From assembly GCA_964485795.1 (NCBI GenBank), contig CAZAJQ010000001.1:78014-142013 (forward strand): a stretch of DNA of 64,000 nucleotides. The letters run 5' to 3'. The DNA comes from an uncultured Gammaproteobacteria bacterium. GTDB taxonomy: Bacteria > Patescibacteriota > Patescibacteriia > VMEV01 > CAZAJQ01. Both the position numbers and the translations under genes were made by a program. This document shows, piece by piece, positions 5,947-49,708 of this stretch (positions are counted from its first letter, which is position 1; every line of letters begins with the position of its first letter). The notes under the pieces were generated by a model, which saw nothing but the letters and a program-made list of their open reading frames with translations, did not search any database and was not told the DNA's origin.

Positions 5947-7011
5947 TCAATATATCTTTAATAACTTATATACACGTTCTTTTACGAGAACATAGTTACT
6001 TGGAAATAAATCGGCATAGTAGAGGCTTAAATATTTGCCAAACGAATACAATGAAGTGCAGACATTATTATTAACTTTATTGCATGAAATAGTAAAATCT
6101 TCAACTATATTTGCATAGTCAACATAAGTTAATTTTAATGTCCTAATATAAGACCAATCCCCCGTTACATCATCCTCAAATATATCAGTTAATTGATCCC
6201 CTGCTACATTAATAACTTTCAAAAGTAATAATATTTTTTTTATTTCTTTGAGATCATCCAGAGAAATATAATTTGGATGTGACTGAACCCATTCAATAAG
6301 TAAAAAATAAAAAATTGCAGCAAGGGGAGTATTTGCTACAATTTGACAAGCAGAAAAGTTTTCTACATTTACTTTATTACATATTGACCTTAATTGATGA
6401 ATCTCCTGTGCTAAGTAATCATTATTTTGAAAAATTTTCTGAGACATTTTTTCTTTATAAAGTAATCTGCTCTCCCCAGCAATAATTTGCATCTTGCAAC
6501 AATTCTCTATTTCAAATACATAATATTCCTCTAAAATCTTAATTAACTGATTACGAATCAATGGCTTCCAAATTCGCGCTTTCCAGACCCACCTATTTAG
6601 GACTTCATCAATACCACCAAAATATTTAGAAATCTCTTTTTCAACTTTAATTTTTTTTCCTTGTCTCAAAAACGGGCTCCCTAATATTTTTAGATATAGG
6701 TTATCTAAACACTTATAATCATTCAATTTCATTTTATCAATTATATCGTCCAAAAGATCAAATAAAAAAATATTGTAAGATATGAATGATATTATTTTTC
6801 TCTGAGTCTCCGTGTTATCGAATAATAAAGAAAAATAAGAGGTTACTTTAGGGTACGGCTTTTTTAAAATTAGCGACTCGTGAATAAAGTTATAGGTTCT
6901 TTCTAAGATTAGCCCTTTGATTACATCCCGTTCAAGGCAAAAAAGTTCATTTTGAATTATTAAATCCACTTCAGTATTAATTTCTTCAATATTAAAATTT
7001 GCTCTTGACAT
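5947..7011 (-). CDS. hypothetical protein (354 aa) inside the low-GC island
   Basis: Long AT-rich ORF, K/N/I/Y-rich. It starts 3 nt after the stop of the upstream GAF gene (operon-like). No motif recognised. Confidence 0.55.
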   Translation of the reverse strand: MSRANFNIEEINTEVDLIIQNELFCLERDVIKGLILERTYNFIHESLILKKPYPKVTSYFSLLFDNTETQRKIISFISYNIFLFDLLDDIIDKMKLNDYKCLDNLYLKILGSPFLRQGKKIKVEKEISKYFGGIDEVLNRWVWKARIWKPLIRNQLIKILEEYYVFEIENCCKMQIIAGESRLLYKEKMSQKIFQNNDYLAQEIHQLRSICNKVNVENFSACQIVANTPLAAIFYFLLIEWVQSHPNYISLDDLKEIKKILLLLKVINVAGDQLTDIFEDDVTGDWSYIRTLKLTYVDYANIVEDFTISCNKVNNNVCTSLYSFGKYLSLYYADLFPSNYVLVKERVYKLLKIY

Positions 7012-7014
7012 ATT

Positions 7015-7908
7015 TTACAGCTTTGCTTTCAAATCTTCTTTTCGACTTTTTAAAGTTTTACTAATCACATGATATAAACTCCTTACATATAGATTATATT
7101 GTTGGGAGATACAATCAAATTCCTCTTCAAGATTCTTTAAATCCACAATACTTGCATCTTTTAATTTTGCAGAATAATTTGATATGTAGTCGGAATATTT
7201 TTCAACTTCATCAATAAAACACGCAAAAGCGTGGTTTATTTTCGTGAATTTTCGCTCAAGATTTTCATAATTATACTTTAACCCCAAGAGACTTCCTTGT
7301 AGAGAACTAAATCTTTCAATAAACTTGATATCATTATCTCCAAATTTCACCTTTCCATGCACTTGAATGACACCAAAAAATTCTCCATTACAAAATAATG
7401 GTACAGCCAATATATCTTTTATCCCTATAAACTTATTAATCCAAATCGAAAATTTTTTATTTACAATTGGAGCAATAAATTCAGAAATATCACTTCCTCT
7501 CATTTCCCTCTTATAGGACACCACATCAATAAGCTTATTTTTAACTGTGTTATCAAGTGGAAACTTATGCTTTTGGAAAGTCATCGGAAGCCTACTACTC
7601 ACCAAGACACTTTTCTTCGTTCTTGAAAAAGCAAAAGATTGCAAACAATTCTGATCTTTGAGATGAATATAAAATATTATTCCTGCGTATTTCTTCGGTA
7701 TATTCTTTACAAGCAAATCAACAACAATTTGAGCCAATTCATCAAAACTCATGTCCGTTAGGATTTCCTGAGTAATTTTTTCCAAAGCCTCCGCCAGCTT
7801 CTCGCCGGTTTGGTAACTCATGAGCTGTGACTCCTTCTCTTGGAGCAACTCTACCAGCTGAGCTTTGGTGTAATGTTGATATTTTTGCTTTTTCATAGAG
7901 TCAATCAT
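7015..7908 (-). CDS. GAF domain-containing protein
   Basis: 297 aa. DILAVPLFCNGEFFGVIQVHG is a typical GAF ligand-binding core. This is the first gene of a three-gene minus-strand unit ending in the histidine kinase. Confidence 0.65.
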   Translation of the reverse strand: MIDSMKKQKYQHYTKAQLVELLQEKESQLMSYQTGEKLAEALEKITQEILTDMSFDELAQIVVDLLVKNIPKKYAGIIFYIHLKDQNCLQSFAFSRTKKSVLVSSRLPMTFQKHKFPLDNTVKNKLIDVVSYKREMRGSDISEFIAPIVNKKFSIWINKFIGIKDILAVPLFCNGEFFGVIQVHGKVKFGDNDIKFIERFSSLQGSLLGLKYNYENLERKFTKINHAFACFIDEVEKYSDYISNYSAKLKDASIVDLKNLEEEFDCISQQYNLYVRSLYHVISKTLKSRKEDLKAKL

Positions 7909-8002
7909 ACCATATTTTCCCTCTTTTTTTGCTTTTTATGAAATCCCGTGAGATGATTCTTTTCAAGACCTTTCATCTTATTTTTTTCAATTTTCAAAAC
8001 CT

Positions 8003-11486: not shown

Positions 11487-14201
11487 ATGAAGAGAACATG
11501 TTTTGTACTGAATTTGTTGTTCTTGGTGCTTATCCCTCATGTGGCTTCCGCTTCCGGATACCTGAATATCACGGCGCGCGATCAAAGCGGGAAAAACCTC
11601 ACGCCCATCATTTACTTGAGCGGGATATTCAAAGGGTTTCCTCCTCAGCTGATGACCTTGCCGGCGGGAAATTACTCTCTCAAATTGAGCGTCATCAACG
11701 GCTATACGGAGCAATTTACCAATCCGCAAACCATTACGATTTCGGAAGGCAAAACTCTGACCGTTGATCTGCTGTACACCTCCACAAACCTCGGGACACT
11801 CAATGTCTCGGCCGTGGATACGACGGGAAAATTCTTAGGCGCGCCGTTTTCTCTTGCCGGAACGTCAAAAGGGTCTACCGCGCAATCGCTCTCCCTGAAT
11901 TCCGGCACCTATCGCGTTTCGTTTGGAACTCTTGCCGGATACTCGCTGATCAGCCAAAAAGATGTGGATGCTACGGTGTTACCCGGCATCCCCACCTCGA
12001 TCAAGGCGACTTACCAGATCCTCATGAGCTTTCAAGACGTCACCGGTCCGGATATCGTCTTTCATTCTCCCCTGCCTTTTGGCACCGTGAATCAAAGCAG
12101 CATCCTGATCAAAGGATCCATCACGGATCAAAGTCGCATTACCGCGTTTTCCGTGAACAATGTATCTTCCATCAACATTGATGCCGGAAACTGGGAATGC
12201 GGAGTGAACCTCGCGTACGGGACGAATTCCATCGCGTTCAACGCTCAAGATGAATATGGAAACAGCACGGTGAAGTACCTCATTCTCGTGTATTCGCCTC
12301 CGGACACGACGGCTCCTCTCATCACGATTGACTCGCCGTCAAACAATACCGCGCTCACCACGGATACGGCGGTCATCAAAGGAACGATCAGCGACGCCAA
12401 TGCCATCACGTCTTTTACGCTCAATGGCACACTCGGCGTGCTGCCAAACGGCAATAATTGGCAAGTGACTCACAAGCTCATGGAAGGAATCAACCTTCTC
12501 AATTTCCGAGCTGTCGATGAGTACAACAACATTTCCGAAAAGCAGCTGATCCTCTCATATACGAGACCCTTGCCGCCTTCGGGAAACGTCGAAGCCGTCA
12601 TTTCGGATGCCAATGTCACCTATCTGGTGCAGGAAGACAATGAATCCAATGCCAACGTCAAAAAAAATGACTTGCAGTGGAAAACCGCTAATCTCGTTTC
12701 CGAAACCGTACTGGTGCGTCAGGGAAGATTGATACGATTTTCCGGTTACGGGAAAAGCGCCACCGTATCTCCGATCACCGCCTATCAATGGTATGTCATG
12801 GATAACGGGAAAAAAATCGTGCTGTCGGGCAATGCCAGCTTCTCAAGTCGATTTTTACCCTATATCAATTACCAAAGCACGAATGCGGTGCTGACGGTGT
12901 TCTTCGAAGTGCGGGAAAATGCAAACACATGGTCATATCCGGCTTCCATCACCATCACGTTCAAAAGATTCGTGAAATTGTATCCGGTTTTTACGGAACA
13001 TTGGATCGCATCCGGAAATCGCTATGGAGATACCGGCGAAGATCCTAAAAACAATACGCATCTCAAATACTTCGGATCCAAAATCAATGATAATTTCGCC
13101 ATTGATTTCAACTACGGTTCCGATCGAGATGATTATCAGCGAATCCTGGTATGTCCCTTCAAAAAGGGTCAAATAACCAAGGCGGACAACTACAGCGGAT
13201 GGGGTCGTCGAGTCGGAATTACGCCGCTGGATGACTTTGACCAGCCCATTACCGATCATCTTGGAAATCCATTTCTGTACATGATCTGCCACTGTGCGGT
13301 CGTTTCCGTTTCCGAAGGTGATATCGTCTTTCTCGGCAATGAACTCGGCACTTGCGGAGCCACCAATGTCACGCAGCATAGCAATGCCACAGACAATGAC
13401 ATGAAACCCCATGTTCACGGTGCTCTCTATACCGTACGCGGCGATTGGCTGGTCAGTGTGGCGCAAGAGCCGCTGTTTCTCAATCCTAGCGATGACGAAA
13501 AAGTCGTGGATATGCTCATGGACAAGGAAACTCCGTATGAGTCACAAAACACGTTAAAAAGAAATCCGGGTATCATCGTTGTGGATGATGGCGCGGCATC
13601 CGGACTCGTCTATGATCCGCTCTACGTATATTTCGGTTACAATCGAAGCCGATATTTTTCCGAAACCTCGGTGACAAGCTCGACGGTTGAGCACGTTTGG
13701 ACGCCGACCGTCGCAAGCTCGGGATTTTACATGATCGAAGTCCTTATCCCCTATCTCAAATCCGACTCTGAAAAAGCCGTTTATGAAATCTTCACGTCCG
13801 AAGGAAAGATATATACGGCTCAAGTCAATCAGAATCTGTATGTGAACGAATGGGTGAGATTGAAAACTTCGGATCATCAATTCACTTTTTACTTCTCGAA
13901 AGGAGACAAAAACTTCGTCAAACTCACGAATAAGACGGGTGAATCCGGAAAGACACTCAGCTTTGACGCCATTCGCTTCATACAAATCAGTTCCAGCGAA
14001 TTTGGCGGCGGAAATGACGCGACCGGATCAAGCACGGACACTCGGCAAAAAAATCGCGGAGGATGTTACATGAATGCAAATGTCACATGCGACTCTCGCA
14101 ATCAAAGTGAATCGCTTGAGGACATCTTCGAAAACTTTTTTGCTCTCTATCTGCCTCTCGCACTTTTGATCTTTACTATGTACATTGTGAAAAAACGTTA
14201 A
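11487..14201 (+). CDS. large secreted protein (904 aa) with PEGA-like repeats, two tandem Ig-like repeats and a C-terminal TM anchor plus basic tail
   Basis: AAGGAG RBS 8 nt upstream. Signal peptide. Repeats SPLPFGT...IKGSITD / SPSNNTALT...IKGTISD. C-terminus FFALYLPLALLIFTMYIVKKR. Confidence 0.75.
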   Translation: MKRTCFVLNLLFLVLIPHVASASGYLNITARDQSGKNLTPIIYLSGIFKGFPPQLMTLPAGNYSLKLSVINGYTEQFTNPQTITISEGKTLTVDLLYTSTNLGTLNVSAVDTTGKFLGAPFSLAGTSKGSTAQSLSLNSGTYRVSFGTLAGYSLISQKDVDATVLPGIPTSIKATYQILMSFQDVTGPDIVFHSPLPFGTVNQSSILIKGSITDQSRITAFSVNNVSSINIDAGNWECGVNLAYGTNSIAFNAQDEYGNSTVKYLILVYSPPDTTAPLITIDSPSNNTALTTDTAVIKGTISDANAITSFTLNGTLGVLPNGNNWQVTHKLMEGINLLNFRAVDEYNNISEKQLILSYTRPLPPSGNVEAVISDANVTYLVQEDNESNANVKKNDLQWKTANLVSETVLVRQGRLIRFSGYGKSATVSPITAYQWYVMDNGKKIVLSGNASFSSRFLPYINYQSTNAVLTVFFEVRENANTWSYPASITITFKRFVKLYPVFTEHWIASGNRYGDTGEDPKNNTHLKYFGSKINDNFAIDFNYGSDRDDYQRILVCPFKKGQITKADNYSGWGRRVGITPLDDFDQPITDHLGNPFLYMICHCAVVSVSEGDIVFLGNELGTCGATNVTQHSNATDNDMKPHVHGALYTVRGDWLVSVAQEPLFLNPSDDEKVVDMLMDKETPYESQNTLKRNPGIIVVDDGAASGLVYDPLYVYFGYNRSRYFSETSVTSSTVEHVWTPTVASSGFYMIEVLIPYLKSDSEKAVYEIFTSEGKIYTAQVNQNLYVNEWVRLKTSDHQFTFYFSKGDKNFVKLTNKTGESGKTLSFDAIRFIQISSSEFGGGNDATGSSTDTRQKNRGGCYMNANVTCDSRNQSESLEDIFENFFALYLPLALLIFTMYIVKKR

Positions 14202-17654: not shown

Positions 17655-17915
17655 TCATGAAGGAACTTTTATTGCCTTCACTCCATAGAGAATCAACCCT
17701 TCCTCGCTTTTTGAAATCTTTCTCTTCATCAATGTTACCTCCTGCCCGATTTTCACGTCTTCACCATCCGCAACCGTAACCATGATCCGCTCATGGGAAT
17801 CGGCCAGCTCAATCAAGGCAACCGTATACGGCGTTTCGGCAACCATTCCGCTTGGAGCTGAAAAGAGTTTTGAAAACGTCAAAACCTTTCCTTTTTTCCC
17901 GAGGAAAGCCCGCAT
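17655..17915 (-). CDS. DUF35-type OB-fold protein, the thiolase/HMG-CoA synthase partner. It lacks the usual N-terminal Zn ribbon.
   Basis: MRAFLGKKGKVLTFSKLF...PYTVALIELADSHERIMVTVADGEDVKIGQEVTL matches the DUF35 OB-fold. The ORF-track extension to 18047 contains no Cys and overlaps the repeat element, so the ATG at 17913-17915 is preferred. Confidence 0.65.
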   Translation of the reverse strand: MRAFLGKKGKVLTFSKLFSAPSGMVAETPYTVALIELADSHERIMVTVADGEDVKIGQEVTLMKRKISKSEEGLILYGVKAIKVPS

Positions 17916-17990
17916 TTTTTTATGCTGCCGCCATACAAAAGGCGGGGTATGAAAAAGTGTCATAGAAAAAATACGTAATGGTATGAATTT

Positions 17991-18260
17991 CCTCCCCTTG
18001 GACAAGGGGAGGTGGCCGAAGGCCGGAGGGGTGAGCTTCGTGAACATGGCGTTTACCGTGTCCGAAGCGGAGGGGTGAGCTTCGTGAACATGGCGTTTAC
18101 CGTGTCCGAAGCGAAGGGGTGAGCTCCGCGAAAATGGAGCTTACCGTGTCCGAGCCGGAGGCCTGGCTCTGGCAGGGGGGTGCTTCATGAGTAAGTGCCT
18201 ATTCAATGTTCCCGCCCCACCCCTCTGCCCTTCGGGCATCTCCCCTTGTCCAAGGGGAGA
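17991..18260. repeat. composite repeat element: a 22-nt hairpin CCTCCCCTTGGACAAGGGGAGG (17991-18012), a 3 x 44-bp tandem direct repeat (18025-18156; copies 1 and 2 identical, copy 3 diverged), and an inverted copy of the hairpin TCTCCCCTTGTCCAAGGGGAGA (18239-18260)
   Basis: Read directly from the sequence. Unit: GGAGGGGTGAGCTTCGTGAACATGGCGTTTACCGTGTCCGAAGC. Confidence 0.85.
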
Positions 18261-18270
18261 ATACGCAACG

Positions 18271-19416
18271 TTATACCTTACCCAAAAGATGCATCACACA
18301 TGTCGCGCCGCTGCCGCCCACATTATGCGTCAATGCATATTTCACGTCCGGAGCCTGCCGCTTCCCCGCCTGCCCTCGAAGCTGCCATGCGGCTTCCGCG
18401 ATCTGTTTCACGCCGGTGGCGCCGACCGGATGACCGCACGCTTTCAAACCTCCGGACGTATTGAACGCCGGCTTCATATCGGAATGATTCATCATTTTCA
18501 TAAGCAACGCGCCACCTTCTCCTTTGTTTGCAAACCCGATATCCTCAAGCGCCATAAGACCCGCAATGGAAAAACAATCATGCACTTCGACAAGATCAAT
18601 GTCCGCCGGCTTCAAATTCGCGGTAGCGAATATTTTACGGCTGGCTTCTTGCGTTGATTTCAGACCGATCAAAGTTTTTCTGCCCGATAGCGAAAGCGTA
18701 TCGCAGGCGACTTCACTTGCGACTATGCAAACATCATTATCGGTTTTTCGCGCTTCCTCTGCCGACAATATCACGGCGCCCGCTCCGTCTGAAATCGGAG
18801 AGCACTCAAGCAAGGTCAAAGGGTCTGCGATCATCGAGCTTTCCAAAACGTCGTTAACTGAAATTTCTTTTTGAAACTGCGCCAACGGATTTTTCGCACC
18901 ATTCCGATGCGAAATGATCGAAGCTGCGGCCAGCTGCTCGCGTGTCGTTCCAAACGTTTCCATATGCTCCCTTGCCATCATGGCGTACAAAGCCGGAAAA
19001 GTAGCGCCGGCGAGACGTTCTTCGCTTGACGCGGCCTGCATCAAAAATGAAGCGACGGTCTCGGCCGAAAAGTCCGTCATCTTCTCCACGCCCACTACCA
19101 ACACTTTTTTATACTGCTTCGCCTCAATCGAAGTAACCGCCCGATGCACCGCAAGTCCTCCGGACGCGCAGGCTCCTTCGACGCGAAAACATGGGATGTT
19201 CACGCCGTATTGTTCACAGAGCAAGGCTCCCGCATGACTTTGCATGGCCGTTTCTCCGCAAAGCATCGTTCCGACGAAACACGCCTCAATCTCTGAAACG
19301 TTCATGCCGGAATCAAGCAACGCCAAATCAACGGCTTCTCGAAAAAGATCTTCAAAGCTTTTGTCCCAAATTTCTCCAAAACGCGTCATGCCGATGCCGG
19401 AGATGATCGTGTACAT
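18271..19416 (-). CDS. archaeal-type acetoacetyl-CoA thiolase (thiolase-like/SCP-x family)
   Basis: 381 aa; GMTRFGE...CASGG...NTSGGL...GHPVGATG thiolase signatures. Adjacent to HMGCS and DUF35 as in archaea. Confidence 0.9.
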   Translation of the reverse strand: MYTIISGIGMTRFGEIWDKSFEDLFREAVDLALLDSGMNVSEIEACFVGTMLCGETAMQSHAGALLCEQYGVNIPCFRVEGACASGGLAVHRAVTSIEAKQYKKVLVVGVEKMTDFSAETVASFLMQAASSEERLAGATFPALYAMMAREHMETFGTTREQLAAASIISHRNGAKNPLAQFQKEISVNDVLESSMIADPLTLLECSPISDGAGAVILSAEEARKTDNDVCIVASEVACDTLSLSGRKTLIGLKSTQEASRKIFATANLKPADIDLVEVHDCFSIAGLMALEDIGFANKGEGGALLMKMMNHSDMKPAFNTSGGLKACGHPVGATGVKQIAEAAWQLRGQAGKRQAPDVKYALTHNVGGSGATCVMHLLGKV

Positions 19417-19424
19417 AGGGGAAG

Positions 19425-19540
19425 AGGTAGGAGTAAGTAGTCAATTCTCAGCTCTCAGGAGTAAGTTCTCAGTGCGTAAGCATAACTGCAAAACGTCGAT
19501 TCGGCAGCTGAGTACTGAGAACTGACTGCTGACGCACTTG
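19425..19540. repeat. GAGTAAG/CTCAG(T) heptamer-palindrome repeat, family member 2 of 3
   Basis: ...gagtaagtagtcaattctcagctctcaggagtaagttctcagtgcgtaag...gctgagtactgagaactgactgctgacgcacttg, between thiolase and HMGCS. Confidence 0.6.
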
Positions 19541-19544
19541 TTCC

Positions 19545-20582
19545 CTAACGCGACAATTTGCCGCGCATTTTTACGTACTGCGGATATGAAACGTATTTTT
19601 TCTCTCGAATCTGCTCCTGCAACGTATGATTTCTCTTGAAATTTTCAATATTCTTCGTGACTTCAAAAATAAAACTGTCCGAGCCCGAGCCCGAGCCGTA
19701 GGAAGTCATGAGGATTGATTCCCCCGCTTTCGCATGATCCAAAACGTTCGCAAGGCCGAGCATGCTGCATGCCGAGTAGGTATTTCCTATCTCGGATACG
19801 ATCATCCCCGCACGCAGCTGCTTTTCGGAAACTCCGAGCGTTTTTGCGGCCATTTGGGGAAATTTACCGTTGGGCATATGAAAAATCACATGATCGAAAT
19901 CGGAAACGCTTTTACCGTTTTTTTTCAAAATCTTTTTGGTCGCGGATACGACATGCTCGAAGTATGCGGGTTCACCGGTGAATCTCCCTCCGTGAGCGGG
20001 GTACTCGGACTTTGGCGCTCGCCAAAAATCGGGCGTATCGGAAGCCATGGAAAACGTATCTTTCATCTCGCAGATGATTTCATCTTTTTTATTTCCAAAA
20101 AGAAACGCGGCCGCGCCGCTCGCCGCCGTATACTCGAGCATATCCCCCGGTGCTCCTTGAGCCGTGTCAGCGCCTACGGCAAAGCCATACGCTATCATAT
20201 TCGAGCGAACCATTGAGGCAACGATTTGCATGGCCGCGGTTCCGGCTTTGCACGCGAATTCCAAGTCTGCGGAAAAATAATCTCGCATGCCGAGAGCCTG
20301 TCCCACGAGCGTTCCGCTTGGCTTCACGGCGTACGGATGACTTTCGGAGCCGATGAACATCGCTCCGATATCTGCGGACGATATCGAAACGCTTTCCAAA
20401 GCGTATATGGCCGCGCTCAAAGCCAAAGTCACCGTATCTTCGTCCGCGGACGCTACGGCTTTTTCTCGTAAAAGAAGTCCTCTCTTGATGTTTTCAGGAT
20501 CTTTCCCGTGCGCTTGGGCTATTTCATCAGCGGTAATGCGAAACATGGGAATAAAAGATCCATAGGTGATGATACCGGACAT
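19545..20582 (-). CDS. hydroxymethylglutaryl-CoA synthase (short archaeal type)
   Basis: 345 aa; active-site Cys context DLEFACKAGT; HMGCS/FabH fold motifs. Confidence 0.9.
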   Translation of the reverse strand: MSGIITYGSFIPMFRITADEIAQAHGKDPENIKRGLLLREKAVASADEDTVTLALSAAIYALESVSISSADIGAMFIGSESHPYAVKPSGTLVGQALGMRDYFSADLEFACKAGTAAMQIVASMVRSNMIAYGFAVGADTAQGAPGDMLEYTAASGAAAFLFGNKKDEIICEMKDTFSMASDTPDFWRAPKSEYPAHGGRFTGEPAYFEHVVSATKKILKKNGKSVSDFDHVIFHMPNGKFPQMAAKTLGVSEKQLRAGMIVSEIGNTYSACSMLGLANVLDHAKAGESILMTSYGSGSGSDSFIFEVTKNIENFKRNHTLQEQIREKKYVSYPQYVKMRGKLSR

Positions 20583-20680
20583 GAACGTGAAAATTTATCT
20601 TTTGATAAACAGCCTGTCCCGCATATCGGTGAACGAAGGATGACAAGGATAATTCCGGACTTATGGCACTGATATCTTCG

Positions 20681-21829
20681 CTACGAACGTTCACGGTAAC
20701 TCTTATGCACACGAGCCAAATCCTGCGAGGCGAGGCATGCAAGCAGAGATATTTCGCCGGCCAAGACGGCGCCGGCGATGATTTCAACGAAGGCGTGATG
20801 AGCGCTGCCAGGGTTACCCTCGTCGATGGTGATTCCCATCATGGCCAGCGATTCACTTTGCTTGGGAAGTCCGGTGCCTCCGCCCACGACCCCGCATACC
20901 ACGCTCGGCAAAAAAACATTGACATAGACGCCGCCGTCCTTTTCCTTCTCGACGGATGTGATCCCGAGACTTCCTTCCACGACATGCGCCATATCCTGCC
21001 CCGTCGCCAAAAAAATCGCGGAAATGATGTTTGCATAATGCGCATTCATGGCCATCGAACCGGCGGCAAGCGATCCGGCAACGATCTTGCTCTGATACAC
21101 GTCAAAAAATTCATCGGCATCGGTCTTGAGCACGTTTTTCAAAACATCCGCCGTCAATACGACCTCGGCGTTCACGGAATATCCGCGGCCTTCAAGCATA
21201 TGGGTGAATGCCGCCTTTTTATCGCTGCAATAATTTCCCGACAATGAGCGACATCGCACTTTTGTTTCGGGTTCGATGATGTGAGAAATGAGATGGTCGC
21301 ACGCGATCACCGCCATATTCATCCCCATGGCATCTTTGGGATCAAAGGTGAATTTCACAAAAACATTTCTCCCGATCTGCTTGCAAAAAATGCCGACGAG
21401 CTCCAAAAATCGGCTCGTCTTGCGAATTTCAGCGCCGAATCTCTCTTTGTTTTTCATGATAAAATCCATGAAATCCTTTCCCTGCCGCTGATGCAGCACT
21501 CGAAAAACCGGAGCGCGCGTGATGCCGACATGATGCGCCCTCACAGTCGCTCCTCCGGACAAGGTGATCGCTTTGCACCCGCGATTGACACTGGCGACGA
21601 GGCACCCCTCGGTCGTGGACAGCGTCAATATCCTTTCGTCGTTGACGATGTCTCCGTTGATTTTCAGCGGCCCGGCGATGCCGAGCGGAACGCTCACCGC
21701 GCCGATCATATTTTCGCAGTTCTTTGTCGCGCATCCGAGATACTCGTCGCTTCCGGCAAGAATCTTCGCGGCACTCACGCGACCGTACGATAATATTTTT
21801 TCTAATTTTTCACGGCTCTTTTCCGACAT
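20681..21829 (-). CDS. HMG-CoA reductase, class I-like catalytic domain
   Basis: 382 aa; ENMIGAVSVPLGIAGPL and DAMGMNM motifs. Confidence 0.9.
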   Translation of the reverse strand: MSEKSREKLEKILSYGRVSAAKILAGSDEYLGCATKNCENMIGAVSVPLGIAGPLKINGDIVNDERILTLSTTEGCLVASVNRGCKAITLSGGATVRAHHVGITRAPVFRVLHQRQGKDFMDFIMKNKERFGAEIRKTSRFLELVGIFCKQIGRNVFVKFTFDPKDAMGMNMAVIACDHLISHIIEPETKVRCRSLSGNYCSDKKAAFTHMLEGRGYSVNAEVVLTADVLKNVLKTDADEFFDVYQSKIVAGSLAAGSMAMNAHYANIISAIFLATGQDMAHVVEGSLGITSVEKEKDGGVYVNVFLPSVVCGVVGGGTGLPKQSESLAMMGITIDEGNPGSAHHAFVEIIAGAVLAGEISLLACLASQDLARVHKSYRERS

Positions 21830-22839
21830 AGGTGATGGCTGTAAAGCTGTTGACTTCCGAGACTTTTGAGATCTTTTGATCCGGTGGCGAACATGGTGAT
21901 TTTGAGTTCCAAAATCAATCGTTCGATGGTTTTCATGACTTGTTCATGGGATATTACCGCGCTTTGCAAAAAAGGCAAGGCGCAAGACGCATACTTGGCT
22001 CCGAGCGCAATGCATTTGGCGATGTCAAGCCCGGTGCGCACTCCCCCTCCGGCTATCACGTCCACACCGCTCACCCTTGACGCCTCAAGCACGGCAATGG
22101 GAGTCGGGATTCCGAAATTTCGAAACGTCTCTCCGATATCGCGATAATCGCTCCGTCGCTTGCCTTCGATCCACGCCCATGAAGTTCCGCCGCTTCCGGA
22201 AACATCGATGATCGAGATGCCTATATCTTTTAAACGTTTCACCGTTGATCGTGAAATCCCGGCACCGACTTCTTTCGCCATGAAGGGAATATCGAGGTGA
22301 GCGACAACGCGCTCCATTTTTTCCAGCAAACCAAAATAATTTTTATCTCCTTCAAACTGAACGGCTTCTTGCAAAGGGTTCAGATGAAAACACAGAGCAT
22401 CGGCTTTGACAATATCAATGATTTTCTTTATATCTTCGAGTGTCACTCCATAGTTGAGCTGCACCGCTCCGAGATTGGCGAAAACGGGAATGGTGGGTGC
22501 GAATTTTCTCACGACCGCAAAGGTTTTCTTTGCGTCTTCTTTTTCCAGCATGATGCGCTGCGATCCCACGCCCATGGGCAATCTCAGCTTTTCAGCCGCT
22601 TGCGCCAAATTCGCGTTGATCGTCTCCCCGTGTTGTGTTCCTCCGGTCATGGATCCTATAATAAGGGGGGCGGAAATTTTTTTTCCCAAAAAAATCGTTT
22701 CCGCGGAGATTTCGTCAAAATTTATTTCCGGAAGCGCATTGTTTTCAAAAAAAAGATCATCAAAATATCGCTGCTTGGTATCAACTTCTTCCGAAAGACA
22801 AATATCAATATGATGTTTTTTCCTTTCCGATAACGACAT
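21802..22839 (-). CDS. fni: type 2 isopentenyl-diphosphate isomerase (FMN-dependent IDI-2)
   Basis: Begins MSLSERKKHHIDICLSEEV, with GSMTGG and GGVRTGLD TIM-barrel motifs. The ORF-track N-terminal 231 aa (to 23532) are a shadow of mvk on the other strand, so the start is set at 22839. The 3' end overlaps the HMGR start by 28 nt. Confidence 0.85.
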   Translation of the reverse strand: MSLSERKKHHIDICLSEEVDTKQRYFDDLFFENNALPEINFDEISAETIFLGKKISAPLIIGSMTGGTQHGETINANLAQAAEKLRLPMGVGSQRIMLEKEDAKKTFAVVRKFAPTIPVFANLGAVQLNYGVTLEDIKKIIDIVKADALCFHLNPLQEAVQFEGDKNYFGLLEKMERVVAHLDIPFMAKEVGAGISRSTVKRLKDIGISIIDVSGSGGTSWAWIEGKRRSDYRDIGETFRNFGIPTPIAVLEASRVSGVDVIAGGGVRTGLDIAKCIALGAKYASCALPFLQSAVISHEQVMKTIERLILELKITMFATGSKDLKSLGSQQLYSHHLCRKRAVKN

Positions 22840-23760
22840 ATGGCTCTTGCACTCGCCCCCACAAAACTCATTCTCATCGGTGAACATGCGGTTGTGTACG
22901 GATATCCGGGACTTTCTTTGCCTTTGCCGCTTCTCACCACCGCCGAAGTGCTCCATCATGGTGAGCCCGACATTCATCTGGAAGCGAATTTCAAACTTGC
23001 GGAAGAAGTGGTCGACTGGCTCCACAAGCTCCTCGACCCGCTTTTCGATATTTTTCCAAATAAAAACAATCTCCTCGTCCGTCTTCATGTGACGGCCGAG
23101 GCAGGTTCGGGGATGGGCGTATCCGCAAGCGTTGCCGTGGCTTTGATACGCGCATTCTTTGATTATTATAATAAAAAACTGGACCAAAAGACACTTTTTG
23201 ATCTGGCTCGGCAGATGGAAACCGTCTCCCACGGAAAACCAAGCGGAATCGATCATACCACGATCATTGAGAATGAACCACTTTTTTTCAAAAAAATCAA
23301 CGGAAAGCTTTCCATTCGAAAAATTCCAAAACTTTTCAATCCCATGATTTTCAAACATTGCGCCATACTCTTCAGCGGAAAACCTATCGAAAGCACGAAA
23401 ACGATGGTTGAGCTCGTGAAAACGCGTCATGAACGCGATGAAAACTTGGTCAATGAAACGTTTGAGAACATCGAAAATCTCACCTATGCGCTTTTTACCA
23501 GCCTCATGATTTCCGACGAAACGCTTTTTCACGAGACGCTCGCTTACGCCGGAGATCAGCTCACGGCATTGGGAGTCGTCTCACCGACCGCTTCCCGCTT
23601 GCGAAAAAAGCTTGAAACGCTTGGAGTCGCTTCCAAAATTTCCGGAGCCGGAGGAGCATGCGCCGGATCGGGTATCCTTCTCTGCCATCATGAAGATCAA
23701 AACATCATCACGGATTTCGCGAACCGAAACGATATCAAGTTTTGGACTCCATGGGCTTGA
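22840..23760 (+). CDS. mvk: mevalonate kinase (GHMP kinase)
   Basis: APTKLILIGEHAVVYG, SGMGVSAS and KISGAGGGA motifs. Its ATG directly abuts the IDI-2 start codon on the other strand (CAT|ATG). Confidence 0.9.
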   Translation: MALALAPTKLILIGEHAVVYGYPGLSLPLPLLTTAEVLHHGEPDIHLEANFKLAEEVVDWLHKLLDPLFDIFPNKNNLLVRLHVTAEAGSGMGVSASVAVALIRAFFDYYNKKLDQKTLFDLARQMETVSHGKPSGIDHTTIIENEPLFFKKINGKLSIRKIPKLFNPMIFKHCAILFSGKPIESTKTMVELVKTRHERDENLVNETFENIENLTYALFTSLMISDETLFHETLAYAGDQLTALGVVSPTASRLRKKLETLGVASKISGAGGACAGSGILLCHHEDQNIITDFANRNDIKFWTPWA

Positions 23761-24547
23761 TGAGACTTCCGATGCACGGTGCTCCTTTCAACGCCGAAAA
23801 AAATCGTTCCGGTTCATTGCCGTTGATGATGAGCGTTTGCACTCCAACGTCGGCGAGCGCGAGAGCGGTTTCAAGTTTGTGTCGCATGCCGCCGGTCACA
23901 TCCGCGACCGTCGGTTCATGAATAAAGCGAAAAATCTCTTTCTGATTTTCTCTCGTGATGACGGGAACGACCTCGCCGCGGTCATCCGTGATCCCGTCCC
24001 TATCCGAAAGCATCAGAATGGTTTTGACGGGATATTTTTTCGTCTCCGTCCATGATTGTGCCAAATATTCAAGCGTGATTTCATTTGAATTGATGCTCAC
24101 TCCGACGGTTTTATCCACGATGACATCCCCGTAGACGACGGGCAGAAAACCTTTTTCCAAAGCTCCGCAAAGAACATCATCAAACAATGCGACGATATTT
24201 TTTTTGTCGTTCACGGTAAACCCGGAAGGAGCGAAAGACATGGCCGGAATATTCGCGAGAAGCAGCTCTTTCATCACCAGCCGATTGAGTCGAGCGACCG
24301 CATCATGCACAAGACAAGCCCCGAGTCTCCCGTACGCGTCGTGAAAACCGTTCGCGGTTCCAAACTTTTTTGCGGCCGGATGACCGAAAGACCCGGCTCC
24401 ATGACCCAAAACAAGAGAAACGTCGGGATAAGCCTTCATAAACCGCGACAATACACCGGCCAAATTTCGAACGGATTCTTCTCGAAACACTTCGACGTCT
24501 GATTTGTCCGTGATGACGCTTCCTCCCAGTTTAATAAGAATCATCAT
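23735..24547 (-). CDS. isopentenyl phosphate kinase (amino-acid kinase family)
   Basis: LIKLGGSVITDK and GHGAGSFGH. 270 aa. The 3' end overlaps the mvk 3' end convergently by 26 nt. Confidence 0.85.
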   Translation of the reverse strand: MMILIKLGGSVITDKSDVEVFREESVRNLAGVLSRFMKAYPDVSLVLGHGAGSFGHPAAKKFGTANGFHDAYGRLGACLVHDAVARLNRLVMKELLLANIPAMSFAPSGFTVNDKKNIVALFDDVLCGALEKGFLPVVYGDVIVDKTVGVSINSNEITLEYLAQSWTETKKYPVKTILMLSDRDGITDDRGEVVPVITRENQKEIFRFIHEPTVADVTGGMRHKLETALALADVGVQTLIINGNEPERFFSALKGAPCIGSLIKPMESKT

Positions 24548-24555
24548 ACAAAATT

Positions 24556-25575
24556 TTATTCGTTGACGGCTTCCAAAACGATTTTCGCTCCTTCCGCCGG
24601 CTTATTTTCGATCAGGGTAATCACCCCCGGCACCGACGCAAGCTCATTCTTGACGTTCAAAACGCAATCGCCTTCGCAAATGACGTGAACATTGGATCCG
24701 GCGTCAATCGTCGCATAGGCGAGTATTCCTTTTTCACGAAGCTCCCTGACGCGATCGAGCACTCTCATGGTGGAATCGTTCCAATAAAATATCGGGGGCT
24801 TTTGCGTCATGGCGATGCAATGCATGCAGACGCTGTCTTCTTCGATCACGGTTCCCAAAGCGCGAATGTCTTTTTTTTCTATCGCCTCCCGGCATCTTCG
24901 TAATCGATCCGGTATCGCGGATATCCTCGAGGGAAAGTGCGGACTGGTCTCGGCGGCTCGGTGTCCGTCGCTTGAAGACACTTTCTTTTTATCCACGGCG
25001 ACCACGGCCACGATATCGGCCAGATCCCAATGCTCATGCGTCGCGATTTACACGGAATGACAAGTATCGCGGCAATAATCCATGCAAGATTCCACAAAAC
25101 CGCCGTGACTGGATCGCATGGCGGACACCGAGCCGCCGAGACGAATGAGCTCGGAAAGTCTTTTCCTGTCATTCACGTATTCATCCAGTCCGTACGCTTG
25201 ACACAAAGCGAGCGTCAAAGCCGCAAATCCCGAGGCCGATGATGCGATACCGACATCGGAGGGGAAATTGTTTTCCGAACGGATATTCGCGAATCTCAAA
25301 TCGTTTCCCAACGCTCGAATTCGACCGATATGCTCAAACATCAAACGCTGCTTGATATCGCCTTCGTTTTTGACCCGTTGAAATTCTTTCCCGAAAAATT
25401 TCACCCTCACGTCATCGTCAATAGATTTTTCCATGATTTCAACGCTCGTCACCGTGAAACAATTCGAAAGGGTCATGGAAATGGTATTGGTATAAGGCAA
25501 AAAAATGGTCTTGTCTTTTTGACCCCAATATTTGATAAACGCGATATTTGCCGGTGCCCATGCCGTCGCTTTCAT
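24556..25575 (-). pseudogene. diphospho-/phospho-mevalonate decarboxylase homologue (GHMP family) interrupted by one in-frame TAA at 25048-25050. Seen as two same-frame ORFs, 175 aa and 151 aa.
   Basis: N-terminal part APANIAFIKYWGQKD...SSASGFAAL...RLGGSVSAMRS. C-terminal part ...KKVSSSDGHR...PPIFYWNDSTMRV...YATIDAGSNVHVIC. Both ORFs share a frame (25575, 25050 and 25011 are all 0 mod 3). The 12 codons between them (IATHEHWDLADI) have no stop. Confidence 0.8.
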
Positions 25576-25584
25576 ATGTGCTTT

Positions 25585-26655
25585 CTAAACGTCTCGATGT
25601 ATCATAAAATCAGCCAAATCTTTGAAAAATCGAAACCCTTCTTCCGAAAAAAATTTTGGATTCAAGTGCTCGATCGCTTCTTTGTGAAGTTTTTTCGCCA
25701 ACCTTTTCGAATACTGCAGCGAACCGGTTTCTTCCACGATCTTTTTGACCTTTCGGGCATCGTCAGCCGTAATATCCGGATTTCCCAAAGTCTTTTCAAA
25801 AATTTTTCGTTGCGACGGCGAGCAATTTTGCAAAGCCTTGACGATGAGCAGGGTTCTTTTTCCCTGTCTGAGGTCGGAAAGCACGCTTTTTCCGATTTTT
25901 TTTTCGTCTCCGAACAGTCCCAAAATATCATCCTGCAATTGAAACGCCACACCCACCGGAATCGCGTATGCGGTGAGATTTTCCATCACTTTTCGCGGCG
26001 CGTTCGCAAGCATGGCTCCGATATGCAGAGGCGCTTCCACCGAATACTTTCCCGTCTTGTACGTATGCACTTTCATGACATGATTGCGTGTGGCATCTTC
26101 ACGCATTTCAAGAAAAATGTCCAGCATTTGACCGATATTCACTTCTTTGATCACGTCCAAAAGATGCAGCATAAGATGATTTTTCACGTCCGAAGAAAAT
26201 TTCGTCTTGAGCACCGCCTCTTTTGCCACTTCGGAAAGCAAAATGCCGGCGATGATGCCCATGGAATTTCCGAAATGTTCTCGATTTTTGGCCGCGTAAT
26301 TTTTCCGATTCATCTTGCTGTACCGATAATGTATCGTGGGACATCCGCGTCGTTTCGTGTCCCGATCCATGATATCGTCATGAATCAATAAAAAACTGTG
26401 GATCAGCTCCATAGCCATCGCGACTTGAAAAACGTCTTCATCGTGTCCCTTACCTCCGCAGGCGAAGTATCCGAAATACACCAAAGCCCCGCGCATCTTT
26501 TTTCCTTTTCCCACGCAAATATCCTTGATATGGCGAAAAAGCTCGGCTCCCAGTGGTGTAATGAGACGCGCTTCTTCCATCTTTTCATTCAAATACGTCT
26601 CAAGATCGGCATCCATCTTTTTTTTGAAATCTGCCAATTGATCGGGTATCTTCAT
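25585..26655 (-). CDS. polyprenyl diphosphate synthase (FPP/GGPP synthase family)
   Basis: LIHDDIMD and FQLQDDILG aspartate-rich motifs. 356 aa. Confidence 0.9.
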   Translation of the reverse strand: MKIPDQLADFKKKMDADLETYLNEKMEEARLITPLGAELFRHIKDICVGKGKKMRGALVYFGYFACGGKGHDEDVFQVAMAMELIHSFLLIHDDIMDRDTKRRGCPTIHYRYSKMNRKNYAAKNREHFGNSMGIIAGILLSEVAKEAVLKTKFSSDVKNHLMLHLLDVIKEVNIGQMLDIFLEMREDATRNHVMKVHTYKTGKYSVEAPLHIGAMLANAPRKVMENLTAYAIPVGVAFQLQDDILGLFGDEKKIGKSVLSDLRQGKRTLLIVKALQNCSPSQRKIFEKTLGNPDITADDARKVKKIVEETGSLQYSKRLAKKLHKEAIEHLNPKFFSEEGFRFFKDLADFMIHRDV

Positions 26656-26680: not shown

Positions 26681-26707
26681 AAAAAACCCTTTACCACGGG
26701 TAAAGGG
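26681..26707 (-). terminator. Rho-independent terminator for the surface-protein gene 26715..28148
   Basis: CCCTTTACC, a 3-nt loop, GGTAAAGGG. The minus-strand hairpin is followed by U6. Confidence 0.65.
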
Positions 26708-26714
26708 TGAAACA

Positions 26715-46597: not shown

Positions 46598-49081
46598 ATG
46601 TCCACGACTTCAAAATTCACAAAAAATCTTTCACGGGTCATCGAACAAGCCTGCCTTTTTGCGATGAAAAAAAACAAAAAAACCGTTGATCTGGCCGAGG
46701 TGGTGGATGCGCTTCTTTTTCAAAAAAAATCTCTCGCGTCGCAGATATTGCATCAGCATCCGGCTTTGATCAAAAAAACCGTTCTTTCGGCGAATCATGA
46801 AAATCTTCCGGAGCGCATCCCTGACTTTTCGGAAGAGCTCTCTCGAGCGCTTGGAAAAGCGACGATCATCGCCTATGTGTACGAGCACCGTTACTTGGGA
46901 ACCGAGCATCTTCTGGCCGCGCTTCTCGAACTCTTCAAGCCGAGCCTCGGAGCCATGCTCGGACTCGGCGTGTCCGACCTGCACTTTTTGGAACAAAAAA
47001 TCATCGCCGTGCTCAAAAACACGTCGAAATTGCCTGATTTGGAAGAAATCCTCTCGATGGCAAAAGAAAAGCAAACCCTTCGCAAAGAATATTCTCAAAA
47101 AACTTCGACTTCCTATCTCGATACCTGCACTGAAAATATCACGCAAAAAGCTTTTGAAAAAAAACTCGATCCTTGCGTGGCTCGAGACGCGGAAATCAAC
47201 CGCATCATCCAAATCCTCGGAAGAAGGAGAAAAAACAATCCCATCCTTTTGGGCCAGCCCGGGGTGGGGAAAACCGCCATCGTCGAAGGCCTTGCGTCTC
47301 GAATCGTCCGCGGGGACGTTCCCGATTTTCTCAAAAGGGGCAATATCCTGTCACTGGACACCAGCGCACTCGTGGCCGGAAGTTTTCATCGCGGGGAATT
47401 TGAATATCGTCTCAAGTATCTTCTCAATGAAATCCAAAAAAATCCGAACCTCATCCTTTTCATCGACGAGATTCACACCATTCTCGGCATCGGCTCTCAT
47501 GAAGGAAGCGTGGATATGGCCAATATCCTCAAACCATCATTGGCGCGAGGGGAGATACGCTGCATCGGCGCCACGACCTTTGACGATTATCGTAAATATT
47601 TCGAGCGCGACGCCGCATTGACTCGCAGATTTCAGCCCATCCATATTCATGAGCCGAGCACCGAGGAAACCGCGCTGATGCTCAAAAACATGAAAAAAGT
47701 CTATGAACAATTTCACAAGGTGAAAATTTCCGACGATGCCATTCAGAGCACCGTGAAACTCGCGGATTCTCATATTCCCGAAAGATTTTTTCCCGACAAG
47801 GCTCTGGATGTGATCGACGAGGCCGCATCGCAGCTCAAACTTTCGATGCCGCAAAGCGCGCTCGAAAGAAAGCTTTCGGAGCTCACCGCAAAAATGGTTC
47901 AAATGAAGGACAAAAAACGTGAGGCGTTACTGGCGGAAAATTTTCTTTTGACGAAAAAATTCAAAACGCAGGAAAAAAAAATGGAGATGCAACTGCAAAA
48001 AATATCTTCGCAAATCCAAAGCGCCCCGAGTACCATGCCTCTGCTTTCCAGCGATCATATCGGGCAGACGATTTCCATGATGACCCATATTCCTCTCGAT
48101 CATTTTCATGAAAAGACCGAAAACTCGTACCGAGATCTGGAAAAAAAGCTTCTAAAAAAAATCATCGGTCAAGAAAAAGCGATTCAAAACATCGCAAAAG
48201 CCGTGCGCATTCACAAGGCCGGCATTCGCGAGCAAGAGCGTCCTTTGAGTTTACTTTTTATCGGACCCGCCGGCGTGGGAAAAACCGCCGCGGCAAAAGC
48301 GGTTGCCGATATCCTCTATCCGAACGCATCCTCGTTTTTGCGTCTGGATATGTCCGAATACACGGAAGCCTTCCATGTTTCCAAGCTCATCGGCGCGCCG
48401 GCGGGATACATCGGATATCGTGAAAGCGGGCTGCTTTCCAATTTCATCTCGGAAAATCCGCATGCGGTCATCGTCTTTGATCGCATGGAAAAAGCGCATC
48501 CGGATGTGAAAAGCATCGTACTGCAGCTCATCGACGAAGGCGGATTGCGCGACGCAGCCGGGAAAAAGGTGAATGCCAAAAATTCGATATTCATCTTCAC
48601 GGTCGCCACATCCTCAAAGGAGGATTCCGTGATTTCAGGATTTGAAAAAAACGATGATCTTGGACGGACGAAAAAAATCAACACCTCCGCACAATCTTGT
48701 GAAACGGCGAAAAAGATATTTTCTTCGGAGTTTATGGACATGCTGGGTGAAATCATCGAATTTCGACCTTTTGACAAAAAAGATCTTCTGGCTTTCGCAA
48801 AGAACGCATTGGATCAGATTCGGAATCACCTTCTCACGCGCGGGAAAAATATCACCTTTGATGAAAAAGTGTATAATACTCTTATCCAGCACTCGGAGGA
48901 TACGAACATCAGCGTCAAAACGTTAAAAAAACACATCTCGGATCGAATCGAAGAATCGCTTGCCGACCTTTTGTTGACACATCATTGCGAGCATATTCAC
49001 GTCGGAGTGAAAAAAGAAAAAATAACGTTTAAGCTCAAGAAACATGACTCCAGAAGAAGCTCAAAATCAGGCTCTCGATGA
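46598..49081 (+). CDS. ClpB/ClpC-family AAA+ chaperone ATPase with two nucleotide-binding domains
   Basis: Clp_N-like N-terminus. Walker A GQPGVGKT and GPAGVGKT. Short middle coiled-coil. 827 aa. Confidence 0.9.
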   Translation: MSTTSKFTKNLSRVIEQACLFAMKKNKKTVDLAEVVDALLFQKKSLASQILHQHPALIKKTVLSANHENLPERIPDFSEELSRALGKATIIAYVYEHRYLGTEHLLAALLELFKPSLGAMLGLGVSDLHFLEQKIIAVLKNTSKLPDLEEILSMAKEKQTLRKEYSQKTSTSYLDTCTENITQKAFEKKLDPCVARDAEINRIIQILGRRRKNNPILLGQPGVGKTAIVEGLASRIVRGDVPDFLKRGNILSLDTSALVAGSFHRGEFEYRLKYLLNEIQKNPNLILFIDEIHTILGIGSHEGSVDMANILKPSLARGEIRCIGATTFDDYRKYFERDAALTRRFQPIHIHEPSTEETALMLKNMKKVYEQFHKVKISDDAIQSTVKLADSHIPERFFPDKALDVIDEAASQLKLSMPQSALERKLSELTAKMVQMKDKKREALLAENFLLTKKFKTQEKKMEMQLQKISSQIQSAPSTMPLLSSDHIGQTISMMTHIPLDHFHEKTENSYRDLEKKLLKKIIGQEKAIQNIAKAVRIHKAGIREQERPLSLLFIGPAGVGKTAAAKAVADILYPNASSFLRLDMSEYTEAFHVSKLIGAPAGYIGYRESGLLSNFISENPHAVIVFDRMEKAHPDVKSIVLQLIDEGGLRDAAGKKVNAKNSIFIFTVATSSKEDSVISGFEKNDDLGRTKKINTSAQSCETAKKIFSSEFMDMLGEIIEFRPFDKKDLLAFAKNALDQIRNHLLTRGKNITFDEKVYNTLIQHSEDTNISVKTLKKHISDRIEESLADLLLTHHCEHIHVGVKKEKITFKLKKHDSRRSSKSGSR

Positions 49082-49646: not shown

Positions 49647-49708
49647 CACCCATTCATTTCTTTTAAAAACTCAATCATTCTCATACCCTTAGAAAAAAAA
49701 CAAACTCT

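Follow-up and report, generated by a model that had tools for sequence, protein, structure and literature searches.

Isopentenyl diphosphate (IPP) can be made from mevalonate 5-phosphate by phosphorylation followed by decarboxylation or in the reverse order, and the origin of these pathway variants is a live question. The reverse order, in which phosphomevalonate decarboxylase (PMD) precedes isopentenyl phosphate kinase (IPK), is established in Chloroflexi and haloarchaea (PMC3857490, PMC9254496). For bacteria of the candidate phyla radiation (CPR), archaeal-like early enzymes and an 'enigmatic' IPK have already been described (PMC6107057), and closed Peribacteria genomes are reported to encode every mevalonate step but the conversion of mevalonate 5-phosphate to mevalonate 5-diphosphate, so that a set without phosphomevalonate kinase (PMK) is real in at least some CPR (PMC4736985). 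The literature searched contained no paper assigning the PMD-IPK route to CPR. Here we describe a mevalonate operon at positions 17655-26655 of a 64-kb stretch of contig CAZAJQ010000001.1 (assembly GCA_964485795.1, positions 78,014 to 142,013), hereafter the window. The operon probably constitutes a self-contained set of enzymes leading from acetyl-CoA to prenyl diphosphate by the PMD-IPK route of the haloarchaeal and Chloroflexi type, and not by the classical route through PMK and diphosphomevalonate decarboxylase (DMD).

Results

A mevalonate operon with a single kinase

Gene identities were assigned from the list of open reading frames (ORFs) and from two profile libraries, Pfam and NCBIfam, the latter including TIGR and NF models with cut-offs. 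Nine mevalonate or isoprenoid genes occupy the interval, with family E-values from about 1e-9 to 1e-143, far beyond chance. Catalytic motifs are seen in every enzyme of the operon, the residues of the decarboxylase having been read on an intact public allele (see below); IPK, for example, retains K6, G8, G9, K15, the catalytic His of a GSFGH motif, and DVTGG (residue list from PMC3857490). An initial annotation, made from the sequence alone, had given the gene content, order, strands and outer coordinates of the operon, and the ORF list and profile searches agree with it throughout. Two of the nine genes need qualification: an in-frame TAA interrupts the decarboxylase, and the DUF35-type protein has no zinc ribbon.

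In the pathway that we propose, the thiolase and HMG-CoA synthase (HMGCS), probably bridged by the OB-fold protein, would take acetyl-CoA to HMG-CoA, which the class I HMG-CoA reductase (HMGR) would convert to mevalonate. A single GHMP kinase, here termed K1, would form mevalonate 5-phosphate, the decarboxylase would turn this into isopentenyl phosphate, and IPK would phosphorylate the latter to IPP. The type 2 isopentenyl-diphosphate isomerase (IDI-2) would produce dimethylallyl diphosphate (DMAPP) from IPP, and the trans-prenyltransferase would yield farnesyl or geranylgeranyl diphosphate (FPP or GGPP).

No gene for a PMK of any type, for the methylerythritol phosphate (MEP) pathway, for AcnX or for UbiD/UbiX was found in the 64-kb window, in agreement with the absence of PMK noted in the initial annotation; none for PMK was found in the stretch of the public contig just past the window end either. 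We infer that PMK and MEP genes are likewise missing from the rest of the genome. Two other archaeal-type routes were considered and rejected. The aconitase-X/UbiD route has none of its genes in the window, which instead encodes a decarboxylase of the mevalonate diphosphate decarboxylase (MDD) family. A Thermoplasma-type route is contradicted by the single MDD-family gene, which keeps the catalytic Asp291, a residue absent from mevalonate 3-kinase (M3K), and has no second homologue; the enzyme scores 34 bits on the M3K model (cut-off 440) and does not match the bisphosphomevalonate decarboxylase model.

Active-site residues of the decarboxylase

Active-site readings and structure searches used the intact decarboxylase (CAA allele). 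Among all solved structures, its best relative is the mevalonate 5-phosphate decarboxylase of Anaerolinea thermophila (6N0X/6N0Y; 1.4e-63, 218 bits), and classical DMDs match it at 1e-40 or weaker. Specificity residues were taken from the difference between 6N0X and 6N0Z, an engineered A. thermophila enzyme, together with statements in papers citing the defining study. Only two aligned positions set these sequences apart: in 6N0Z the Asn of the YWGxxD motif is replaced by Lys, and the His of SSxxG(H/M) by Met. According to PMC9254496, mutagenesis turned PMD specificity into DMD specificity. At these positions the window enzyme has Gln19, where classical enzymes have Lys, and His205, where they have Met. 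Lys21 (Staphylococcus epidermidis numbering) is an invariant ligand of the terminal phosphate in DMDs and is replaced by other residues in PMDs (Dellas Table 4, PMC3857490), and a 2024 survey gives as the PMD-like pattern the absence of the conserved DMD lysine with retention of the conserved PMD histidine (PMC11052028). The catalytic residues S149/S151, R154, K197, S201 and D291 are present in the intact allele. The initial annotation had proposed an isopentenyl phosphate route and looked to key residues to tell phospho- from diphosphomevalonate specificity; Gln19 for Lys, His205 for Met and the A. thermophila enzyme as nearest solved relative are sequence proxies that favour a decarboxylase specific for mevalonate 5-phosphate.

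Comparison with related loci

A scan of one genome per species gave 80 related loci with 10-kb flanks, drawn from CPR, Chloroflexota, Acidobacteriota (mainly Thermoanaerobaculia), Gemmatimonadota and some bins labelled Gammaproteobacteria. These were searched with the nine window proteins, and the active-site positions of their decarboxylases were read. IPK is immediately adjacent to 44 decarboxylases without Lys at position 19 and to six with it, and two GHMP kinases in the absence of IPK are found near 11 Lys and one non-Lys decarboxylases (Fisher odds ratio 81, p = 2.6e-7 for the association of Lys19 with context, uncorrected for shared ancestry). All 10 loci with Gln19, counting the public copy of the window locus, have an adjacent IPK. 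Operons that join IPK to a non-Lys decarboxylase were seen in some CPR, among the Acidobacteriota (Thermoanaerobaculia and others) and in Gemmatimonadota.

Several CPR loci share the backbone HMGR-HMGCS-thiolase-OB-K1-decarboxylase. In three of them (L084, L086, L042) the backbone is followed by IPK and position 19 is Gln or Asn; in five (L017, L027, L044, L067, L074) a second kinase, K2, is inserted before the decarboxylase, IPK is absent and position 19 is Lys, with Met205 in four of the five. In a neighbour-joining tree the window decarboxylase falls within a mostly Gln19, all-His205 clade, whose members of known context (P0001/L006 and P0016) show decarboxylase-IPK adjacency and one kinase, P0016 also having the kinase convergent. 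The two-kinase Lys19 decarboxylases, five of them with Met205, form a separate clade.

The identity of the kinase bears directly on the proposed route. K1 is the only GHMP kinase in the window; it scores 30 bits on the PMK model, as compared with a far higher, though sub-threshold, score on the mevalonate kinase model (Table 1). Its solved relatives are mevalonate kinases throughout, it carries GEH and HGKPSGID (HGxPSGxD) motifs, and K1 homologues outside CPR, in Lactobacillales and Clostridia, are named mevalonate kinase. Where a locus has two kinases, the top-scoring assignment of each is mevalonate kinase, and BLAST scores divide them into K1 and K2. Every related locus in which any kinase was found has K1, and this holds for all IPK-linked loci with one kinase, whereas K2 is confined to two-kinase loci (11) or to loci cut at one end (three more). 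No K2 lies within 10 kb on either side in the IPK-adjacent loci, and in two-kinase loci K2 is situated between K1 and the decarboxylase. On PMK models K2 reaches 85 bits and K1 38, and K2 also matches the ERG8 model. From this distribution and the logic of the operons, K1 would be the mevalonate kinase (MVK) and K2 an added PMK. The opposite assignment, of the window kinase as the CPR 'PMVK', was rejected on the distribution of K1, its HGxPSGxD motif, its MVK-named relatives and the higher scores of K2 on PMK models; with K1 as PMK the operon would have no MVK and a superfluous IPK, a far less economical arrangement.

Several points weigh against the assignment of the PMD-IPK route. The specificity of the decarboxylase is predicted from two residues and context, and only one of the six positions of Dellas discriminates, since Tyr16, Ser149, Ser151 and Ser201 are common to both types and Phe25 corresponds to neither. 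The NCBIfam diphosphomevalonate decarboxylase model gives 210 bits, above its cut-off of 171, and the haloarchaeal PMD model NF040704 gives 161 bits, far under its cut-off of 475. The A. thermophila enzyme itself is said to use both substrates (PMC11052028). His205 also occurs in many Lys19 enzymes beside a second kinase, and IPK stands beside six Lys19 enzymes, so neither residue is a perfect marker. K2 is closer than K1 to archaeal mevalonate kinase (131 versus 65 bits), and the decarboxylase is interrupted in the window. The score above the cut-off of a broad model explains the public annotation of the gene as a diphosphomevalonate decarboxylase; PMD and DMD are frequently misannotated by automatic pipelines (PMC11052028), and for this clade that automatic annotation is probably wrong.

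Some of these observations would be expected if the genome carried a PMK elsewhere, the decarboxylase acted on mevalonate 5-diphosphate and IPK served in salvage, as proposed for plants. CPR have been described with MVK, PMVK and DPMD together with an IPK of unknown role (Hoshino & Gaucher, PMC6107057), the score above the DPMD cut-off agrees with such an activity, the six Lys19 enzymes that adjoin IPK mean that adjacency alone is no proof, and in a draft metagenome-assembled genome (MAG) genes may be out of view. The decarboxylase, however, has Gln19 instead of the Lys ligand of the terminal phosphate, it groups apart from the CPR clade with second kinases, K2 is absent within 10 kb of IPK-adjacent loci and no second GHMP kinase is encoded in the window, and putting IPK to use makes the operon complete from acetyl-CoA to prenyl diphosphate. 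We therefore regard the classical route as unlikely. We also consider it quite improbable that the decarboxylase has dual specificity, taking both the 5-phosphate and the 5-diphosphate, with only the monophosphate branch being fed here. The Chloroflexota enzyme of Thomas et al. has both activities according to PMC11052028, and the window enzyme shares with it the 'no Lys, has His' pattern and the 218-bit match; in the absence of PMK, though, no diphosphate substrate would be made, and the sequence would look the same as it does for an enzyme of the PMD-IPK route. The isopentenyl phosphate route of the initial annotation thus stands, on residues and comparative context, as far as sequence can carry it, with the reservation that the window allele of the decarboxylase is broken.

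Further features of the related loci touch on these gene arrangements. In Thermoanaerobaculia, other Acidobacteriota and Gemmatimonadota there is a conserved operon of IDI-2, HMGR, K1, non-Lys decarboxylase and IPK, with the prenyl synthase first in most (L024, L031-L033, L036, L039, L043, L047, L051, L054-L057, L059-L061, L064, L066, L073, L075 and L082), which suggests that the PMD-IPK route is widespread beyond Chloroflexi. In one Microgenomates locus (L027:8580-10004) K2 continues at its C terminus into a Nudix-like domain resembling IDI-1, the fusion protein measuring 474 aa. Another locus (L007:11027-11617) has a guanylate-kinase-family gene in the usual IPK slot, with an Arg19 decarboxylase, one kinase and no IPK; this gene could be an ordinary gmk or an unrelated phosphotransferase filling the role of IPK. 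Bins labelled Gammaproteobacteria or Pseudomonadales (L009, L010, L014, L021 and others) carry CPR-type decarboxylase-IPK or operon loci, and their taxonomic labels may be unreliable.

An in-frame stop codon in the decarboxylase

The decarboxylase extends over 340 codons of a single frame, of which codon 176 is TAA, a feature overlooked in the initial annotation. The stop splits the gene into ORFs at 25048-25575 (175 aa) and 24556-25011 (151 aa), and another NCBI contig (210,515 bp) lists the two halves as distinct proteins. By contrast, an intact decarboxylase of 339 aa is encoded in assembly GCA_016204025.1, whose contig JACQLO010000002.1 is near-identical to the window, and in two independent single-run assemblies, SRR12113383 and SRR12113384. 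These three assemblies differ from the window gene at three sites only, all within 19 nt (25050, 25052 and 25068), and read Asn170, Glu175 and Gln176 where the window reads Asp, Val and stop. Another contig, from a third single run, breaks off 38 nt away from the variant site, in keeping with heterogeneity among strains at this spot. Recoding of TAA was rejected, given CAA in the other assemblies, the Gln consensus of the family at position 176 and no other sign of TAA reassignment in the window.

Since Asp170 and Val175 are common within the family and Gln is the consensus at position 176, the window haplotype looks like a natural variant carrying a derived nonsense mutation, though it may be an assembly artefact. 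Either a strain variant is unable to finish the pathway, or the assembly is wrong at the TAA, the intact allele being present in the same population. If the nonsense mutation is real, the decarboxylase may be a pseudogene of a decaying pathway in a cell that takes isoprenoid precursors or lipids from a host. The stop itself, the separately recorded halves, the family-typical residues at positions 170 and 175 (which speak for a natural haplotype and not for random error), a repeat element that is also inserted in the operon (see below) and the single-run assembly that breaks beside the variant site are all compatible with decay. Set against these are the intact allele in three other assemblies of the same population, the eight remaining genes, all intact and with catalytic motifs kept, and the density of the changes, as three substitutions in 19 nt of an otherwise identical gene could be a consensus or assembly artefact. 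Decay is accordingly a possibility that we take seriously while leaning somewhat the other way.

Between the window and GCA_016204025.1 there are about eight substitutions across about 54 kb. Six of them form two tight triplets, at 13369-13381 and 25050-25068, and two others lie within 47052-64000. The first triplet causes G628V, K629T and I632S in a 904-aa surface protein, and the second includes the decarboxylase stop. Such clustering looks like strain micro-heterogeneity or small recombination patches.

The thiolase, HMGCS and OB-fold proteins

HMGCS keeps the E-C-H-N tetrad in its GSES, FACK, HMPNG and GNTY motifs (motif from PMC12960953), and the thiolase keeps the CxS (CAS), HDxF (HDCF) and GHx (GHP) motifs. 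By the criteria of PMC12960953, retention of this tetrad and these motifs identifies mevalonate-type enzymes; a repurposed acyltransferase complex, as in PhlABC/MucABC, was ruled out by the HMGCS tetrad and the thiolase HDxF motif (PMC12960953). The OB-fold protein, at 102 aa, contains no cysteine, and its CPR orthologues, of 96-102 aa, are mostly Cys-free. A profile of these orthologues matches chain E of 6ESQ/6ET9 at 9e-21 over residues 46-128, which form the OB fold; it matches the N-terminal WR helix weakly and skips about residues 22-45, where the zinc ribbon (about residues 20-45) lies. From these alignments the protein is a predicted orthologue of the DUF35 scaffold subunit from which the zinc ribbon has been deleted, and it probably holds thiolase and HMGCS together. 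The initial annotation had identified the three proteins with the archaeal substrate-channelling complex: orthologues of all three are indeed present, and the DUF35 partner differs in having no zinc ribbon.

Operon layout and host

The coordinates of the operon features are collected in Table 1. The prenyl synthase and decarboxylase genes are separated by 9 nt, and the decarboxylase lies directly upstream of IPK at a distance of 8 nt. The kinase (plus strand) and IPK (minus strand) converge, and their 3' ends overlap by 26 nt (23735-23760). The start codons of the kinase and IDI-2 stand back-to-back at 22839/22840 with zero intergenic bases, so each promoter must sit within the coding sequence of the other gene; the first 28 nt of HMGR coincide with the last 28 of IDI-2. 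The divergent kinase/IDI-2 layout is also found in the closest relative, and the convergent IPK/kinase layout in another close relative. A scan for consensus promoters and terminators gave a count not above shuffled expectation and is uninformative.

Table 1. Features of the mevalonate operon, in window coordinates
Feature	Position	Strand	Evidence or remark
Terminator-like hairpin between upstream gene and prenyl synthase	26686-26708	-	10-bp stem then T run; weak evidence
Trans-polyprenyl diphosphate synthase (short-chain, FPP/GGPP synthase-like), first operon gene	25585-26655	-	PF00348 5.5e-57
MVD/PMD-family decarboxylase, predicted phosphomevalonate decarboxylase	24556-25575	-	PF22700 + PF18376
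In-frame TAA, decarboxylase codon 176	25048-25050	-	CAA (Gln) in other assemblies
Isopentenyl phosphate kinase (IPK)	23735-24547	-	NF040647 IPPK_Arch 187 bits, cut-off 120
Mevalonate kinase, 'K1' type	22840-23760	+	TIGR00549 150.8 bits, cut-off 163
IDI-2, type 2 (FMN) isopentenyl-diphosphate isomerase	21802-22839	-	TIGR02151 393 bits, cut-off 281
Class I HMG-CoA reductase (HMGR)	20681-21829	-	PF00368 2e-101; TIGR00533 (NADPH, class I) 352 bits
Archaeal-type HMG-CoA synthase (HMGCS)	19545-20582	-	TIGR00748 435 bits (cut-off 353); NF003274 475 bits, above cut-off
Archaeal-type acetoacetyl-CoA thiolase	18271-19416	-	NF004720 457 bits, above cut-off
Repeat element	17992-18259	.	42-nt inverted arms around three tandem 44-nt units
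OB-fold-only DUF35-type protein, 102 aa	17655-17963	-	PF01796 7.6e-9

The best NCBIfam models for the prenyl synthase are GGPP/FPP synthases, every one under its cut-off, and the protein has DDIMD and DDILG aspartate-rich motifs. HMGR contains a DAMGMN motif and scores 39 bits on the class II model TIGR00532, far below its class I score. The thiolase reaches 441 bits on NF053570, the model of the Methanothermococcus thermolithotrophicus type, under the cut-off of 600, and the public record gives IDI-2 a length of 345 aa.

Between the thiolase and OB-fold genes, which abut or overlap in related loci with no repeat between them, lies a repeat element of 268 nt whose arms are 90% complementary and which resembles a miniature inverted-repeat transposable element (MITE). 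The core of its arms occurs nowhere else in the window (0 expected by chance). Three single-run assemblies end at 18236, within one of the arms, and these breaks suggest that the genome holds more than one copy of the element.

The host is a Parcubacteria-group CPR bacterium from groundwater with a tiny genome. A CPR-like host had been proposed in the initial annotation and is borne out by the NCBI organism name of GCA_016204025.1, 'Parcubacteria group bacterium' (within the Patescibacteria/CPR clade), and by the surrounding genes. Neighbours in the window include an NAD-dependent DNA ligase, GatCAB, a type IV pilus cluster, RecG, RecQ and ClpB, as well as large CARDB/PKD surface proteins, and these surroundings fit a bacterial, CPR-like host. 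An Rfam search of the window returned two tRNA-Ser genes and no other match. The GC content falls sharply to 30% at 6001-8000, as compared with about 48% elsewhere in the window; the ORFs under this dip (5947-7011 and 7015-7908) have no family match, or a weak GAF match at best.

Discussion

The closest relatives of the window proteins (41-51% identical for the decarboxylase, 36% for the kinase and about 40% for IPK) are bacterial wherever a source is named. Named relatives of the decarboxylase are mostly from CPR (Woese-, Dojka- and Gottesmanbacteria), with a few from Chloroflexi and other bacterial MAGs, and those of IPK are mainly from CPR and also from Nostocales. The inter-domain transfer entertained in the initial annotation finds no backing here, in that nothing points to a recent archaeal transfer; the archaeal affinity of the early enzymes is a deep, published CPR pattern (PMC6107057). 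IPK homologues of about 35-40% identity are also present in heterocystous cyanobacteria of the genera Nostoc, Calothrix and Tolypothrix (P0280, P0320, P0331, P0354, P0360, P0361), and IPK in these MEP-pathway organisms fits a salvage role in some bacteria.

Taken with its relatives, the operon suggests that the isopentenyl phosphate route is in use in some lineages of CPR and in several further bacterial phyla. We tentatively propose, as a reading somewhat less likely than not, that the PMD-IPK route is a common bacterial version of the pathway and that the CPR backbone comes in two interchangeable forms, one with IPK and a non-Lys decarboxylase and the other with K2 and a Lys decarboxylase, often with Met. 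If so, the two forms would preserve a natural trace of switching between the isopentenyl phosphate and classical routes, the 'enigmatic' IPK of CPR would be explained, and the OB-fold protein without a zinc ribbon would represent a minimal channelling scaffold. The loci also suggest that a simple module swap distinguishes closely related CPR operons, offering concrete enzyme pairs for comparison, and this two-module pattern is a more interesting lead than the window operon itself. The operon does show a bacterium of reduced genome investing in its own isoprenoid precursors, with the decarboxylase broken in at least one recorded variant.

The Chloroflexi pathway, known from the MVK-MPD-IPK set of Roseiflexus castenholzii (Dellas et al., 2013, PMC3857490) and from the A. 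thermophila enzyme (6N0X/6N0Y), is likewise found in a bacterial host and shares with the window one GHMP kinase, an MDD-family decarboxylase that has no Lys at the Lys21 position, IDI-2, and an IPK whose catalytic His is kept. It differs in that the decarboxylase stands alone in the Chloroflexi loci examined, with no IPK or kinase within 10 kb, whereas the window has a single operon in a CPR host; position 19 is Leu, Val or Met in Chloroflexi and Gln in the window, and position 149 is Ala in R. castenholzii and Ser in the window. The haloarchaeal pathway, represented by PMD and IPK of Haloferax volcanii (VanNice et al., 2014, as cited in PMC11052028), follows an equal order of reactions, with decarboxylation of mevalonate 5-phosphate and then phosphorylation of isopentenyl phosphate; the window decarboxylase lies outside the haloarchaeal PMD equivalog NF040704.

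For the early steps, the reference is the M. thermolithotrophicus complex (6ESQ/6ET9; Vögeli et al., 2018, as summarized in PMC12960953). The window has all three genes adjacent to one another, and the likeness extends to the HMGCS tetrad, the thiolase motifs and the match of the OB-fold protein to the DUF35 subunit. The rubredoxin-like zinc ribbon of archaeal DUF35 is missing in the window and in other CPR orthologues, and for the CPR proteins the complex is a prediction.

Within the CPR, the Peribacteria with a 'near-complete' pathway (Anantharaman et al., 2016, PMC4736985) also have a gap between the 5-phosphate and the 5-diphosphate; that study did not read the gap as an IPK route. The CPR clusters of Hoshino & Gaucher (2018, PMC6107057) resemble the window in their archaeal-type thiolase and HMGCS, class I HMGR, GHMP enzymes and syntenic IPK, and the backbone HMGR-HMGS-thiolase-OB-K1-decarboxylase recurs in loci of Gottesmanbacteria and other Microgenomates. 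In a typical cluster of that study a second kinase (PMVK) is accompanied by IDI-1 and a cis-prenyltransferase; the window, in contrast, has no second kinase, IDI-2, a trans-prenyltransferase, and a decarboxylase with Gln in place of Lys joined to IPK. CPR mevalonate genes and the PMD-IPK route are both already published, and the operon is a further example of a known pathway type.

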